From the IMG/VR virus record IMGVR_UViG_2740892487_000005, positions 1 through 44,830 of that record: DNA of 44,830 nucleotides; one strand, 5' to 3'. This document shows, in pieces, positions 4,021-42,135 of the stretch; the stretch's first letter is position 1, and each line of letters starts with the position of its first letter. Both the position numbers and the translations under genes were made by a program. Origin of the DNA: a virus. Lineage: Duplodnaviria; Heunggongvirae; Uroviricota; Caudoviricetes. Under the pieces are notes generated by a model. That model saw nothing but the letters and a program-made list of their open reading frames with translations. It was not told the origin of the DNA and did not search any database.

Positions 4021-4106
4021 TGCTCCCGGAACTGTCGGTTAATTCGGTTGAAGGTGAACGCCAGCAATAAAAAAAGGCCGCTTTAGCGACCCGGTGATCA
4101 GTGCCT

Positions 4107-18247: not shown

Positions 18248-18786
18248 CTAAAGACGACATTTTCAACAGCATCCTCGGTAAAGAGGGCGGCTACGTGAAT
18301 CATCCGGATGATAAAGGCGGCCCGACGAACTGGAGCATCACCCAAGCAACGGCGCGCGCCCACGGTTATTCCGGAGATATGCGCAACCTGACCCGCGAGC
18401 AGGCCCTCGACATCCTCGAGGCTGATTACTGGTATGGCCCACGCTTCGACCAGGTTGCAACTGCCTCCCCGATCATCGCCGCCGAGCTCTGCGACACCGG
18501 CGTGAACATGGGGCCATCGGTACAAGTGAAATGGTTCCAGCGCTGGCTGAACGTATTCAACAATCAGCAGCAATTCTATCCCGACCTGATCGCCGACGGC
18601 CAAATTGGCCCGCGCAGCATCAGCGCCTTGAAGTCCTTCCTGGAGAAACGCGGACCCGAAGGCGAGACCGTATTGCTCAGAGCACTGAACTGCAGCCAGG
18701 GTCAGCGATATCTCGAGCTGGCAGAGCAGCGCCCGGCTAACGAATCATTCGCCTATGGCTGGATCCGGGAGCGCGTGAGCCTATGA
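18244..18786 (+). CDS. Endolysin (glycoside hydrolase family 108 lysozyme with peptidoglycan-binding domain)
   Basis: Start at ATG 18244; N-terminal …GKEGGYVNHPDDKGGPTNWSIT… motif typical of GH108. Confidence 0.85.
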   Translation: MTKDDIFNSILGKEGGYVNHPDDKGGPTNWSITQATARAHGYSGDMRNLTREQALDILEADYWYGPRFDQVATASPIIAAELCDTGVNMGPSVQVKWFQRWLNVFNNQQQFYPDLIADGQIGPRSISALKSFLEKRGPEGETVLLRALNCSQGQRYLELAEQRPANESFAYGWIRERVSL

Positions 18787-19055
18787 CTAAACTGAAAGCC
18801 ATCCTGGCAGGAATCGGGCTCGCCATCGCGCTGGTACTGGCCGCATTTGGTATTGGCGGTATTCGTGGGCGAGAAAAGGCCGAAGCAGAGTCAGAAAAGA
18901 AACGTACCGACGAGAACGCCGCAGCCACCAAAGCAGCTGCAGAACGACGCGTTGAAGTAACCAAGGAGGCCAGCAATGTTCAGCAGACAGTTAGCCATAT
19001 GCCTGATGACGATGTTGATCGTGAGCTGCGCGCAAACTGGACCCGCAAAGGTTGA
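18783..19055 (+). CDS. Spanin, inner-membrane subunit (Rz-like)
   Basis: N-terminal TM helix followed by charged coiled coil, directly after the endolysin. Confidence 0.6.
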   Translation: MTKLKAILAGIGLAIALVLAAFGIGGIRGREKAEAESEKKRTDENAAATKAAAERRVEVTKEASNVQQTVSHMPDDDVDRELRANWTRKG

Positions 19056-19221
19056 GGTAATCGACACCGGCTGCGACTGGGTCAACGTCATTCGCCTCAC
19101 TGAGCACGACATCGAAGTGATGGATCGCCAGACGAAGAAAGATGTGCTGGCACATAACAAATCGGTGCAGGCGAACTGCCAACCGAGTGAATACCGGGCC
19201 TTACAAACGCGGCCTGAGTGA
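18976..19221 (+). CDS. Spanin, outer-membrane lipoprotein subunit (Rz1-like)
   Basis: Lipoprotein signal with lipobox (MFSRQLAICLMTMLIVSC) in an ORF overlapping the 3' end of the Rz-like gene. Confidence 0.65.
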   Translation: MFSRQLAICLMTMLIVSCAQTGPAKVEVIDTGCDWVNVIRLTEHDIEVMDRQTKKDVLAHNKSVQANCQPSEYRALQTRPE

Positions 19222-19253
19222 AACAGAAACAATAAAGCGAGGTGCTTTCCCCA

Positions 19254-19433
19254 TGAAAAAAAGAAGACCGTGGTTTTATCTCGGTTACTAACTCAATCAG
19301 CGAAGTAAAAAACCTCTTCCTGGGAAATGAAATCCCGCAAGAAGGTGAGGTGCTTGAACTGGTGGTTGTCAAAAGCGAAACCACCGATGACTCATGTGCA
19401 TTGGTGCTTAAGCTGCGTTCAGTTCAAAAATAA
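19254..19433 (+). CDS. Hypothetical small protein (about 59 aa), disrupted by two compensating indels in this sequence
   Basis: ATG 19254 preceded by GAGGTG; A7 run at 19257-19263. Reading is restored by removing one A there and adding one base near 19372-19380, giving …LELVVVKSETTDDSCALVLKLRSVQK*. Confidence 0.25.
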
Positions 19434-19545
19434 GACGAACTGATTGACAAATTGAGTATTTCACGTGTGAATTGATGTAACTCATCGATTACTCTGGTGT
19501 ATGAATTCATTATGAATTTCCACTCATCAGTATCGGAGAATATCG

Positions 19546-20287
19546 ATGCATCAACACATAGCAAACGCCACGTTTCAGGTCATCGCAGGTGACTCAAGTG
19601 GCAGTGGTTTTAGCTTCATCCGTGAAGATTTAGTTGTCACTAATTACCATGTTATAGAGTCATGCTTTAATCTAGAAACCAGAAGTCAAACCCATAGCAT
19701 CATCCTGAAAACGGAAGCTAATGAGCAAATTGCAGCTGGGATTGTCTACTTTGACCACGGTAATGATTTTGTCATCATGAAACTGCTTTCAGCACTGCCC
19801 ACAGGTAGAGTTGTTCTTCAGCCTTCCGTTGGTTTTTCACCCACCAGAGGCAAAAAAAATTATCTTTGCCGGTTATCCACACGGAATACCGCAGTTGCTG
19901 ACAAATGAAGCAATTATCTCAGCACCTATGGAGTTAGGCAGATTTGCAATTGATGGTATGGTCAATGGTGGTAATTCTGGCGGGCCAATTATAGATCGAG
20001 CCTCTGGCGAACTGGTGGGTGTCGTCACTCGGCGTAGATATCTTATGGGCGATCAAGCTGATGCTTTCAGTGAGGAGATTGAAAATTTGCGCCAATATCT
20101 TGCTGCAGCAAGCCAACATGGAAGTGTAGCAATAATGGGTGTCAATTTCGGCCAGATGGCAGATATGTTCGGTAGATCGCTACAGATAGTTTCAGATATG
20201 ATGTTGCTTAACGCTAATTCTGGCATCGGAATAGGATTCTCAATGCAGCCTATCATTGACGCCCTTAGCACCATCCCAACAGAATAA
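19546..20287 (+). CDS. Trypsin-like (S1/chymotrypsin-fold) serine protease, no signal peptide; split by an indel in this sequence
   Basis: ORFs 19546..19908 and 19811..20287 join when one A is removed from the A8 run at 19851-19858. Catalytic triad context TNYHV / DFVIMKL / GNSGGP. RBS GGAGAA before the ATG. Confidence 0.8.
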
Positions 20288-20366: not shown

Positions 20367-20801
20367 TTAATCTTTTATTACTTCAAATTCTATCGTATCC
20401 CCCAAGGACTCCGTCATTACAGCGCACTTTATGACTGTAGTGCGCGAATTGGCTTCATTATCTACGAGTGCCTTTCGGAATATCGCTGAAAACTTGCTGA
20501 TCACGTCATTTCTTTGATCTCTAAAATTCGATCCTTCAATACGGATCAAGCCTTTGATGGCCGTTTCTAAGTCTTCTAGCTTTTGCCAATAAGTGAATGG
20601 TCTTGCTGCATTCTCGCTAAAAGTCTCCAGTTCACTCAATTTCTTAAGCTTGCCGATGTCGACGCGAACAGCATCGGATATTTCTTTCGCTCTATGAGTA
20701 TTCCCAACTTTGTTTACAGAGTATGTAAGTAAAAAGTATTCATGCAGCATCATTTGTTCCATTAATGAGATTGATACTAAAAAATTGGGACAAAAAGTCA
20801 T
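20367..20801 (-). CDS. Hypothetical protein (131-144 aa), convergent partner of the protease gene
   Basis: AT-rich ORF with no family recognised; start may be the internal Met at 20762. Confidence 0.55.
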   Translation of the reverse strand: MTFCPNFLVSISLMEQMMLHEYFLLTYSVNKVGNTHRAKEISDAVRVDIGKLKKLSELETFSENAARPFTYWQKLEDLETAIKGLIRIEGSNFRDQRNDVISKFSAIFRKALVDNEANSRTTVIKCAVMTESLGDTIEFEVIKD

Positions 20802-20879: not shown

Positions 20880-21481
20880 ATGAGCAAACCGGACTGGGAG
20901 GCTATTGAATCGGCTTACCGGGCCGGAGTGATGTCCCTTCGCGAAATAGCATCGCAGCATGGCATCAGCGAAGGTGCTATCCGTAAGCGTGCCAAGCGTG
21001 ATGAATGGTCACGTGACCTCAACGCGAAGGTGAAAGAGCGCGCTGACGATCTGGTACGCAAAGCGAGGTACGCAAGCAGGTACGCAGCGAAACGGTACTT
21101 TCTGAGCGCGTACTAATCGAGGCCACTGCCGAGGTAATTGCCACAGTACGCATGGAGCACCGCGGCGACATCCGCCGGGCGAGGACTCTTGCGAACGCAC
21201 TGTTTGATGAGCTCGAGGCTGAGTGCGCAGACGTTGAGGCGCTGCGTACCTTGGGCCAAATGATGCTGTGTCCAGATGAGAACGGGCGTGACCGGCTGAA
21301 CGAGCTTTACCATGCCATCATCAGCATGCCCGAGCGCGTGAAGTCGATGAAAGCGCTGAGCGAGACGTTGAAGAATCTGATTGGCCTCGAGCGGCAGGCC
21401 TACAGCATGGACGAAGGCGAAAAAGATAAGGTCGTTGACGCGCTGTCTGACCTGATGGATTCGCTCTCTCAGGGGGCGTAA
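20880..21481 (+). CDS. Terminase small subunit; split by an indel in this sequence
   Basis: ORF 20880..21116 (HTH-type N-terminus MSKPDWEAIESAYRAGVMSLREIASQHGISEGAIRKRAKR) continues in ORF 21152..21481 after a one-base deletion near 21063-21066. Confidence 0.7.
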
Positions 21482-22952
21482 TGAAACCTGAGCACCTCAA
21501 GCTTCTGGCTGATAAAGACTGGCGGCTGAACAATCTCTACTGGATCACTGACAAAGAGGGTAAGCCCACGCGCTTCAGGATGACGCCTGAGCAGCGGGAA
21601 TATTTCGAGGGGATCCATACCCGCAACATCATCCTGAAAGCCCGGCAGCTCGGTTTCACCACCGAGGTGTGCATCATCCAGCTGGACGCGGCGCTGTTCG
21701 AGTCGGCGAAGTGCGCGCTGATTGCCCACACCCTGAACGACGCCAAGCGCCTGTTCCGTGAAAAGGTGAAGTACGCCTACGACAAGCTGCCCAAAGAAAT
21801 CAGGGCTGCGAACCCGGCAAGTAACGACTCTTCTGGTGAGCTGGTGTTTAAAAAGGGCGGATCGCTCTACGTCAGCACCTCATTTCGTGGTGGTACGCTG
21901 CGTTACCTGCATGTTTCCGAGTTCGGCAAGATATGCGCCAAGTATCCGGACAAAGCTCGTGAGATCGTCACTGGTGCGTTTGAAGCGGTGTCGACAGGAT
22001 GCTTCGCACTATTGAGAGTACGGCGGAGGGCCGGGCGGGATACTTCTTCGATTACTGCCAGACCGCCGAGAGAGCATTGCTTCAGGGCAAACCGCTATCC
22101 GCGCTGGACTGGAAGTTTTTCTTCTTCTCATGGTGGAAGAATCCGCAGTACGCAATCGACCCGTTAGAGCCGCTACCGCAGCGTCTGGTTGATTACTTCG
22201 CCGAGATGAAGGCTAAGCACGGAGTTGTCGTAAACAACCGCCAGAAGGCCTGGTACTACGCCAAAGAGAAAACGCTCGGCGACGACATGAAGCGCGAGTA
22301 CCCGACCATCCCGGCCGAGGCATTCCAGCAGTCGGTCGAAGGCGCGTACTACGCCAAGCAGTTCCGCTGGCTCTACACCAATAAGCGGATCGGCCAGATT
22401 CCGGATAACTCACACCTCCCGGTTCACACGTTCTGGGATATCGGCGTGGGCGACTCCACGGCTATCTGGTTCGTTCGTGAGGTTGGCGAAGAGTTCCACA
22501 TCATCGACTACTACGAAAACTCAGGCGAGGGCCTGCGGCACTACATGAAGGTGCTGAAAGACCGCGGGTATACCTACGGTGAGCACTGGGGGCCGCACGA
22601 TATCGAGAACCGCGAGTTTGCCGCTGATGCGAAATCCCGCAAAGAGCTGGCGCGCGAAGGTTACGAAATCGATGGTCAGATGTACTCGCTGAATTTCAAA
22701 GTGGTGCCGAAAGCCGGCATCGATACCGGCATCGAGTCGGCGCGTGAAATCCTCCCGAAATGCGTATTCGACGAGGAGAAATGCTCGGAAGGCATCTCTC
22801 ACCTTGAGGGCTACCGGAAAGAGTGGGACGACAAACGCGGCTGCTGGAAAGACAAACCTCTCCATGACGCCACCTCACACGGTGCTGACGGCTTCCGTTA
22901 CTTCGCAGTGACGAAGAACAACCGCAAGCAGGTCGGCGCAGTATTCTTCTAA
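21481..22952 (+). CDS. Terminase large subunit; split by an indel in this sequence
   Basis: N-terminal ATPase ORF 21481..22167 and C-terminal nuclease ORF 21999..22952 (…IESTAEGRAGYFFDY…) meet at about 21997-21999, where one base appears to be missing. Confidence 0.9.
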
Positions 22953-38675: not shown

Positions 38676-39056
38676 ATGTTCAATCCTGATAAATACCGTT
38701 CTGTCGAGTGGCAGAAGGGCGGACGCGATTACCCCGCACTGGACTGCTTTGGCATCGTCAACGAAATCAGGCGCGATCTTGGCCTGGCTCCGTGGCCTGA
38801 TTTCGCCGGAGTCACAAAGGATGATGACGGCCTCGACCGGGAGGCGCGCGGGCTGATGGCTGGCCTGACGCGATGTGAGCCTGCCCCGGGCGCGGGTATC
38901 GCCTGTTATTCAGGCTCTGTGGTGACGCACGTTGCCATCGTTGTTGAGATTGATGGCCAGCTTCGCGCCGCGGAGTGCAATCCCCGCACTAACGTAACCT
39001 TCCTGCCGCTGGCGCGGTTTGCGCGCCGCTTTGTTCGCGTGGAGTATTACCAGTGA
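38676..39056 (+). CDS. NlpC/P60 (C40) peptidase-like tail protein (gpK-position)
   Basis: 126 aa with Cys (…LDCFGIV…) and His (…VTHVAIV…) in the arrangement of NlpC/P60 catalytic residues. Confidence 0.55.
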   Translation: MFNPDKYRSVEWQKGGRDYPALDCFGIVNEIRRDLGLAPWPDFAGVTKDDDGLDREARGLMAGLTRCEPAPGAGIACYSGSVVTHVAIVVEIDGQLRAAECNPRTNVTFLPLARFARRFVRVEYYQ

Positions 39057-42000
39057 CGATCCGAATCTATCCCTCACGCCTGCCCGGCGAGCCGCTGGAA
39101 AAGCACGAACACGAAACGATGACCCTCAGCGCCTGGTTTGCGCGGAACGTGAAGGACTGGGCACCGGATCAGCAGCATCCGGTTGCGGTTGAAATCGACT
39201 GTGTCCCCGTCCCGGCGTCAGAGTGGCCACTGTGCGTTATCAAACGCGAAACCGACGTCAGGATGTATCCGGTACCATACGGTACGGGAGCAGAAATCGC
39301 GCTGTGGGTGGCCGTCAGTTTGGCTGTCGCCTCTGCTGCGTACAGCATCTACATGATGAGTACCATGTCGCAGGCAGGCGGCGGTGGTTCCCAGGCGGCC
39401 AGCGGTGACCAGATTGACCTCAACCCGGCCAAAGCGAACTCGGCGAAACTCGGTGACCCCATCCGGGAAATCTTCGGCAAATATCGCGTATGGCCTGATT
39501 ACGTCGTGCAGCCGGTGAGCCGGTTCGTCAACGAGACCAGCATGGAAACCAGCATGTTTCTGTGCGTGGGTGTCGGGGACATGGTGATTAACCAGTCCGA
39601 TATCCGGATCGGTAATACGCCAATCTCTGCTTTCGGTACGGACGTGCGTTACACCCTCTACCCGCCTGGCGCCACGGTATCCGGCGACACGCGCACTGAA
39701 AACTGGTTCAACTCACCAGAGGTCGGCAATACCGGCTCCGGTACCGCCGGGCTGGACCTGGGCTCAAGCGGCCCGGAGACGGTCAGTATTATCGCGGATG
39801 CGCTGGTCGTGTCCGGAAACTCCATCACGCTGGTTGACGTATCGTCGTCTGGGGATGAGGAGATCCCGCCGTCCTGGACGGTCGGAACGGTGATCACCGT
39901 GCTGGCACCAAACTCCTATACGGTCGTGTCGTCCGGCGGTTACAGCGTGATTTATGGCGGAGTAGAGGAACTGGCACCAGTGGTCGGCATGCCAGTATCC
40001 CTGAACTATAACGGCAACGACTACGATCTGGTGATCGCCAGCTACGCCCCTGGCGTTCCGGCGGTGCCGGGGGTAGGCGGTAGCGCCGCCAGAATCACAG
40101 CCAGTGCAGCGCCGACGACCTACGATTTCAGCACCACGCCTGTGACGTTCAGCATCAGTTGGCAGGGCACGACTTACCCGGTATCGCTGGTGACCAACTA
40201 TGTCACCATGTCAGGGCTGGTTTCCTCGATCACCTCGCAATTGTCCGGTTCCGGCCTGGTCGCGCGCGATAACAGTGGGCGGCTTGAAATTGGCGAGGCC
40301 AGCAGCCCCTATGCTGGCGGGTCCATTACGAACAGCCCGTTACCCGTTGCTGTGTTCGGTGATGCTCCGGTTAATACGGCTGGCGTGAAATCAACTGGCG
40401 GCACTGCGGAAGTGAGGGCGCACATTACCCTGGCCTACAATAGCGCCACTGGCACGCCATTCACCGGTCTGCCGGAAGGCATCCAGCGGTTCTCTCTGGG
40501 GCTGGCTGGCAATCAGTTCCGGATCACCGACGTGGACAGCCAGACGGTCACGGTTGAGAGGATTGCAGTCACCACCGGACCTGGCGGTGAGACCATCACG
40601 ACGCCAGAACTATCGTGGCCCGGATTCACTGAGCGAACCCTTCTGGACGCGACCGTTACTGGCGTCAGCGACGATTATGAATGGGTGGGGCCGTTCCTCG
40701 CCTGCCCCGACGGCGAAACCATGGACGCATTCGAAGTGAACATCAACTTCCAGAGCGGGCTGGTTCGCTACACCGATAAAGGTAACAAGCGCTCCATGCC
40801 CGTGCGCCTGGTGATCCAGTATCGCAAGGTTGGTACCACCGCCTGGCAGCAGCAGTCTCCGTTCTATTCCCGCAGCACCGAAAACCAGATTGGGTTTACG
40901 CATCGCTACAGCGTCTCACCCGGTCAGTATGAGATCCGTATGCGCCGCACTGAAACGGTTAAAGGTGGCAGCACGCGTGACCAGGTCTTCTGGCAGGCGC
41001 TGCGCTCCCGGCTGAGAAAGCGCCCCACGAAGTACGACGGAGTCACCACCATGGCGCTGACCGTGCGCACAGGGAATCGCCTGGCGGCCATGTCCGATCG
41101 CCGGATAAGTGTCACACCAACCCGGATTTACAGCGGCGGCAGAACGGCGCGGAGCATCAGCGGGGCGCTTTACCACGTCCTGGAGTCACTTGGGTTCACG
41201 ACCAGCCAGATTGATACGGCGGCAATTGACGCGCTGGAACAAACCTACTGGACGCCCCGCGGTGAGAAGTTCGACTGGGCGAGCGGTGAGAGCAAGTCCG
41301 CACTTGAGGTGCTGCAGAAAATCACCAACGCAGGTATGGGGTATTTCCTGCTGTCTGACGGGCTGGCGTCTGCTGGCCGGGAAGGGATTAAACCCTGGGT
41401 AGGCATGATCACCCCGCAGGAAACCACCGAGGAGTTGCAGACCGCGTTTAAGGCCCCGTCTCAGGACGATTACGATGGCGTGGACGTGACGTATATCAAC
41501 GGTACCACCTGGCAGAGGAGACCGTGCAGTGTCGCCTGCCTGGCAACCCTACGCCGGTGAAAATCGAGAGCTACACGCTGGATGGCGTTCTGGACGAGGA
41601 CCGCGCTTACCGCATCGGCATGCGCCGGTTGCTGGGCTACCAGTTGCAGCGCCTGCAGCACACCACCTCAACCGAGATGGATGCGCTCTGCTACGAGTTC
41701 ATGGACCGCATTGTGCTGGCCGATGACATCCCCGGCAGCCAGACACTGAGTTGCCTGATTACCGATATGACGTATGACAGCAGCAAAATCACCCTGACGC
41801 TCAGCGAGGCCCCGGACTGGTCGTTCCAAAGCCCGCGCGTGATTATCCGCCACCATGACGGGCGGGCATCGGCAATGGTTGTGCCGACACACATTGACGA
41901 CTTCACGATCTCGGTGCCGTACAGCGCCGCGCTGGAGCCGGAATTATGGGCAATGAACGATGCGTACATTGAGCCGCCGCGCCTGCTGTTCTGCTCGTCT

Positions 42001-42135
42001 GTCCGTGTGCCGTATGACGCACTGGTGGGGGAAATATCCCCAGGCAATGACGGGATCAGTCAGGTAACAGCCATCCAGTACCACCCAGGAAAGTATGCCT
42101 ATGACGACGCCACTTACCCCGGCGACGCCGCTTAA
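39053..42135 (+). CDS. Large tail host-specificity protein (gpJ-position); split by an indel in this sequence
   Basis: ORFs 39053..41560 (835 aa) and 41524..42135 (203 aa) join with a one-base correction near 41514-41518 (…YINGTTWQ / ETVQCRLPGNPTPVKIESYTLDG…). Confidence 0.7.

Follow-up and report, generated by a model that had tools for sequence, protein, structure and literature searches.

A small protein whose gene directly precedes that of a trypsin-like protease is often an effector gated by this protease, and Pepco (Trypco1/2) and EACC1, encoded ahead of trypsin-like or caspase-like proteases, are protease-activated effectors of the pore-forming kind (bioRxiv 10.1101/2025.11.14.688446). 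The Pepco/Trypco1/Trypco2 and EACC1 families themselves were defined in Kaur et al. 2020 (PMC7159879). The locus analyzed here, located in a viral record of 44,830 nucleotides (IMGVR_UViG_2740892487_000005, the whole of which we refer to as the window), resembles these modules in its gene order, with a small gene upstream of a trypsin-like protease, in its placement within a mobile, low-GC accessory island, and in having a protease domain similar to defence-associated proteases, namely RT-Protease_XI (E=3e-14) and, at a weaker E=6e-6, the Avs1b N-terminus. On the other hand, the small protein comprises 59 residues as opposed to the 117 of Pepco, lacks any Trypco or other Pfam match at E<=1 as well as any PADLOC assignment, and displays no evident amphipathic or membrane segment, while the protease is devoid of a fused sensor domain. 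Membership of the Pepco/Trypco group was considered and failed, with no Trypco match, a protein of half the size, a sensor-less protease and identities of the two proteins that do not co-vary. That the pair is instead analogous to, rather than homologous with, the Pepco/EACC1 modules appears doubtful, albeit conceivable from the shared arrangement.

The second relevant comparison is with moron genes of lambdoid phages, such as lambda bor. Alike are the slot, which separates the lysis cassette from the terminase genes, a GC content below that of the flanks, and presence or absence among related prophages. The proteins are however unrelated, and the present cassette runs in the direction of the late operon, with the sigma-70 consensus not found ahead of it; a scan for sigma-70 promoters or terminators around the cassette returned counts at about the shuffled expectation or lower, and none before the small gene. 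We assign a probability of roughly 0.85 to the reading that the locus holds a real 59-aa prophage gene, the first of a moron cassette, with a single lesion that is most likely technical.

The window starts with the end of an E. coli chromosomal segment, represented by a DUF72 gene, and then enters a lambdoid prophage. Positions 1-2576 hold the DUF72-domain gene, which in strain KL53 neighbours yecN/cmoA, and then the integrase and excisionase of the prophage, an order that places the putative attachment site at the DUF72 / yecN/cmoA locus. The lysis genes and the region downstream of them are arranged as follows.

About 17.5-18.25 kb: two holins
To 18786: GH108/PG_binding_3 endolysin
18783-19055: Rz
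18976-19221: Rz1
19239..19244, + strand: Shine-Dalgarno sequence GAGGTG of the small gene, from sequence inspection, with an 8-nt spacer to the ATG
19253..19433, + strand: gene of the 59-aa protein, 181 nt in the record and 180 nt when intact
19253..19255, + strand: ATG start codon of this gene, the same start as gene callers choose in relatives
19256..19262, + strand: A7 homopolymer with one extra A, the only lesion of the gene, from alignment to 31 related loci
19434..19545, + strand: conserved spacer of 112 nt from the small gene to the peptidase, with the peptidase RBS GGAG inside
19546..20287, + strand: S1/Trypsin_2 peptidase gene, 246 aa when intact

The 59-aa gene is located directly after Rz/Rz1. 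Between about 19.2 and 20.9 kb the GC content drops from 0.55-0.60 to 0.37-0.46, and since this drop begins at about 19.2 kb, the small gene is part of the AT-rich island rather than positioned ahead of it, contrary to the original prediction, in which the gene ended before the island. Inserted between the lysis and terminase genes, a low-GC accessory ('moron') cassette begins with this gene and runs in the order small gene, 112-nt spacer, and cytoplasmic trypsin-like S1 peptidase.

Inspection of the start region was congruent with much of what had been proposed from the letters alone. The strong RBS is there, read as GAGGTG with its 8-nt spacer, and the GAGGT core is kept across most of the related loci, with GAGGC or AAGGT in a few. 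The proposed start, an ATG followed by an A7 run, is also present, however its position was off by one, 19253 rather than 19254. As given, the site reads ...AAAGCGAGGTGCTTTCCCC ATG AAA AAA AGA AGA CCG TGG TTT TAT CTC GGT TAC TAA, and the ATG frame hence closes after 12 codons, at TAA 19289-19291, precisely the short ORF that had been described for the sequence as recorded. The neighbouring frame is open from 19257 through TAA 19431-19433 (translation KKEDRGFISVTNSISEVKNLFLGNEIPQEGEVLELVVVKSETTDDSCALVLKLRSVQK). Deletion of one A from the A7 run joins the ATG to an uninterrupted 59-codon ORF with the product MKKEDRGFISVTNSISEVKNLFLGNEIPQEGEVLELVVVKSETTDDSCALVLKLRSVQK, in which the A6 tract of the intact gene encodes Lys2-Lys3. 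Thus, the suspected disturbance of the frame at the A run, the remedy of removing one A, and a product of about 59 aa that ends at 19433 were all borne out. One extra A accounts for everything, and no second indel is required.

We then consider whether the restored frame represents a gene. A search with the corrected 59-aa product, the check that had been suggested for it, recovered 67 homologue clusters (E 1.6e-28 to 6e-12, 60-98% identity) from E. coli, Klebsiella, Citrobacter, Enterobacter, Leclercia and Buttiauxella, nearly all of exactly 59 aa and all named 'hypothetical protein'. The corrected product is 100% identical to P0068 (E. coli, UniParc UPI0004D94E83), which was found on 132 contigs, and E. 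coli RefSeq examples of the family include WP_309174432.1 and WP_044064374.1; the gene already has database entries as a hypothetical protein. For 17 distinct gene sequences, the median pairwise dN/dS is ~0.16, and the variable sites at codon positions 1/2/3 amount to 31/22/51. Because the ratio is low and the variation falls mostly at third codon positions, these data show a translated gene under purifying selection. The full-length homologues and the dN/dS value uphold the earlier suggestion that a small gene following the spanins truly encodes a protein.

The family is narrow and belongs to prophages of Enterobacterales. A profile HMM of 47 family members, compared with 1.84 billion representatives, yielded 9 matches, consisting of the same small family and one chance match to a repeat protein (E=3e-4), and no distant annotated relative. 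In a DNA search of 50,697 phage records the small gene found no match, with only the spanin part matching, to Klebsiella phages; tblastn of the 59-aa protein against phage records gave one spurious match only, and a one-genome-per-species contig scan with the family protein alignment recovered no relative. The 59-aa protein is soluble, and its AlphaFold2 model, generated with the family alignment (mean pLDDT 84), predicts a short helix (residues 14-18) and a beta-hairpin (33-41 and 47-55). Foldseek comparison of this model with PDB and BFVD returned no match at E<=0.001, and the Pfam, PHROG, PADLOC and NCBIfam models assigned the protein to no family, even at E<=1.

Altered forms of the gene are also on record. 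P0065 (Citrobacter portucalensis, 64 aa) derives its N-terminal 25 residues from an alternative frame (…EKIRLWVYLGYQHNQRSKK…) and is in register with the rest of the family from the second A run (window 19307-19312) onward, and truncated alleles of 41 and 45 aa have been deposited as P0066 and P0067. The A tracts of the gene are recurrent frameshift sites in other records, be it for real or technical reasons.

To place the extra A, the window was compared with its relatives. None of the 31 related loci carries it: 30 have A6 and the remaining one, L029, has AAGAAA. The alignment of the small gene to its relatives contains a single gap, in the A run, and the A7 allele was not found in IMG/VR, the species-representative genomes or the JGI metagenomes. 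The comparison was extended to the rest of the record, with the relatives L006 and L011 being 99.7% identical to the window over 11.5 kb. The following single-base indels are private to the window, the first eight relative to L006/L011 and the next five relative to other relatives; the last is a possible indel only, weak and at the very edge of the alignment.

14233: A5->A6
17483: T6->T7
19256: A6->A7, in the 59-aa gene
19852: A7->A8, splitting the peptidase
23689: A5->A6, in the portal gene
21064: C lost, in the small terminase (ORFs 20880-21116 / 21152-21481)
22007: C lost, in the large terminase (ORFs 21481-22167 / 21999-22952)
23823: C lost, in the portal gene
1560: T6->T7, in the integrase
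13572: A6->A7
38545: A7->A8
41511: GGG->GG, splitting a tail-tip J-like gene (39053-41560 / 41524-42135)
42172: T7->T8
6: T7->T8, in the chromosomal DUF72 gene

The window hence holds at least 13 private single-base indels, and the weak, alignment-edge case at position 6 is the sole one in clearly chromosomal sequence. Between them, these indels split the genes of the integrase, the S1 peptidase, both terminase subunits, the portal and the tail tip, and the record as a whole has an unpolished look. Each of the nine homopolymer changes adds one base to an A/T run, and each of the four G/C changes removes one. Relative to L006/L011, expansion affected 2 of the 24 runs of five bases, and 3 of the 7 that are six or seven long. 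Where five or more relatives cover the sequence, over 10,550 nt in total, 6 indels versus 3 substitutions are private to the window, with 966 of the same positions being ordinary shared polymorphisms; in natural divergence, substitutions outnumber indels. The excess of private indels over private substitutions, the directional bias, and the fact that four essential morphogenesis genes are struck together form the signature of a technical error rather than one of evolution. The pattern is like that of homopolymer assembly errors in that the single-base indels fall mostly in A/T runs of at least 5, at a rate that climbs with run length, and in that they are private to one record and break conserved genes, including terminase and portal. 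It is unlike them in the four losses in very short C/G runs (GCC->GC, GGG->GG). Aggregated, the extra A is very probably a homopolymer-length error of sequencing or assembly. With the extra A most likely technical, the biological 59-aa gene would be intact, and it would be translated from the ATG at 19253 via the GAGGTG RBS.

The explanation that survives best beside this one is that the extra A is genuine, having arisen in a decaying prophage or a mismatch-repair mutator strain, and that the gene is a true pseudogene yielding a 12-aa peptide only. Homopolymer slippage is indeed common in nature, where it is the commonest indel, the window has many more broken prophage genes, as expected of a cryptic prophage, and the damaged alleles P0065, P0066 and P0067 were found in other assemblies too. 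Neutral decay, however, predicts substitutions in large excess over indels, against the three private substitutions and six private indels seen, and the bias towards +1 in nine A/T runs and -1 at four G/C sites is platform-like. The window is moreover otherwise 99.7% identical to intact prophages, and its broken products, the frameshifted peptidase and terminase fragments, were found in no other assembly among 153 billion gene positions. We accordingly regard a genuine mutation as improbable.

Far less probable still is that the A7 run is both real and functional, through +1 ribosomal recoding, RNA-polymerase slippage or a phase-variable switch of the cassette. The context has some appeal: the ATG frame reads AAA AAA AGA AGA, the Lys-tRNA could move one base downstream and still pair in full, and such a +1 slip would restore MKKED... 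without any change. The tandem AGA triplets that follow are rare Arg codons, 'hungry' ones in E. coli, of the kind associated with prfB/Ty1-type +1 shifting, and the peptidase is likewise shifted at an A run. Yet none of the 31 related loci is out of frame, and the slippery tract is not conserved, as evident from the AAGAAA of L029 and from family N-termini that include MGKE, MNKE, MRKE and MQKE, some without an A tract altogether. Phase variation is equally at odds with a tract that is A6 in 30 of 31 loci and with the absence of A7 from all of these loci and from the three collections, and known contingency loci have, to our knowledge, longer tracts than the 6-7 bases seen here. Against recoding and phase variation alike, the same type of indel occurs in unrelated genes across the window. 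As for the original prediction itself, a pair of compensating indels some 120 bp from each other or else non-coding DNA with a chance 12-codon ORF, neither version has more than the first visual impression in its favour, and both are refuted, as the frame that the second indel near 19372-19380 was to restore is already open at 19257-19433, the alignment to relatives has no gap at 19372-19380, and the full-length 59-aa homologues, the dN/dS of ~0.16 and the exact-match protein on 132 contigs rule out the non-coding fallback.

The very probable technical origin of the extra A has a practical consequence: the record should be handled as error-prone at homopolymers, and at least 13 single-base indels are to be corrected ahead of any pseudogene calls. 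Following polishing, the 59-aa gene, the S1 peptidase, the terminases, the portal, the integrase and the tail-tip genes should be annotated as intact. Overall the finding is an ordinary one, a known hypothetical gene with a very probable homopolymer error and modest biology.

The neighbouring gene shows the same type of lesion. The peptidase is split in the record into ORFs 19546-19908 and 19811-20287, with A8 at 19852-19859, while near-identical relatives have A7 at this run and an intact 246-aa protein. The peptidase matches Trypsin_2 in Pfam (E=1.4e-17), has no signal peptide, and retains the His/Asp/Ser signature (NYHV, GNDF, GNSGGP); HtrA/MarP-type proteases are also resembled, below family cut-offs. 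In 29 of the 31 related loci the distance from the ATG of the small gene to the start of the peptidase is exactly +292 nt, the exceptions being one contig that is too short and L028. The small gene and the peptidase occur together on at least three backbones: a P22-like one, with a lambda-family holin and a GH24 lysin, a lambda-like one with Rha and nohD, and the GH108 type as in the window. This fixed pairing on several backbones shows that the two genes travel as a cassette in the slot between lysis and terminase genes.

The spacer is of fixed length as well, 112 nt in the loci carrying the peptidase, and 113 in L025. Its identity in diverged loci with the peptidase is 67-87%, in most of them 72-87%, and thus higher than the mostly ~57-68% for the 5' part of the peptidase gene. 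It includes the palindromes AATTGATG-N5-CATCGATT and ATGAATTCAT, the latter followed by repeated ATGAATT. When the spacer was folded with RNAalifold, one pair of 33 was compensatory and the covariation term came to ~0, and a role as an RNA element was rejected for this lack of covariation. The 112-nt spacer may be a DNA operator or promoter.

The linkage of the two genes is not absolute. L028 (2998-3177 of IMGVR_UViG_3300014648_000010) has an intact 59-aa homologue directly after Rz/Rz1, no S1 peptidase, and unrelated ORFs downstream, and the small gene is thus not strictly tied to the protease. Furthermore, loci with a more similar small protein do not have a correspondingly more similar peptidase, which argues against tight co-evolution. 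L028, this lack of correlation and the negative family and fold searches with the small protein all count against a functional link to the protease.

How the two proteins might work together is suggested by gene order only, according to which the 59-aa protein would serve the protease encoded after it as a substrate/effector, as an adaptor or as an inhibitor. We put forward such a real functional pair tentatively, and rate it as less likely than not. No more likely, to our mind, is the more elaborate version by analogy, a two-gene moron module of protease and small partner, in which a protease-gated effector or an inhibitor/adaptor would mediate superinfection exclusion or abortive infection, with the spacer as the control region. 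The lambdoid prophages of this proposed module reside in E. coli, Klebsiella, Citrobacter and relatives. The near-constant pairing of the small gene with a stand-alone protease renders the pair a reasonable candidate for a phage-defence or exclusion module.

The remainder of the AT-rich island is occupied by an ORF on the - strand (20367-20801) of 144 aa, called as 127-128 aa in relatives. It has no Pfam match and only phrog_36011 (unknown function, E=5e-7) as a hit, and it is present in the closest relatives only, being absent from the other backbones with small gene and peptidase.

Finally, about 50 nt before the small gene (19202-19252, with the last part of Rz1, …CGCGGCCTGAGTGA, among them) recur in conserved form in L001 and L002, in both at 4050-4100. 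In prophages of the L001/L002 type the small gene is not adjacent to the spanins, despite this conserved stretch from the end of Rz1. Judged from this sequence conservation, the cassette apparently moved along with a remnant of the Rz1 3' end.
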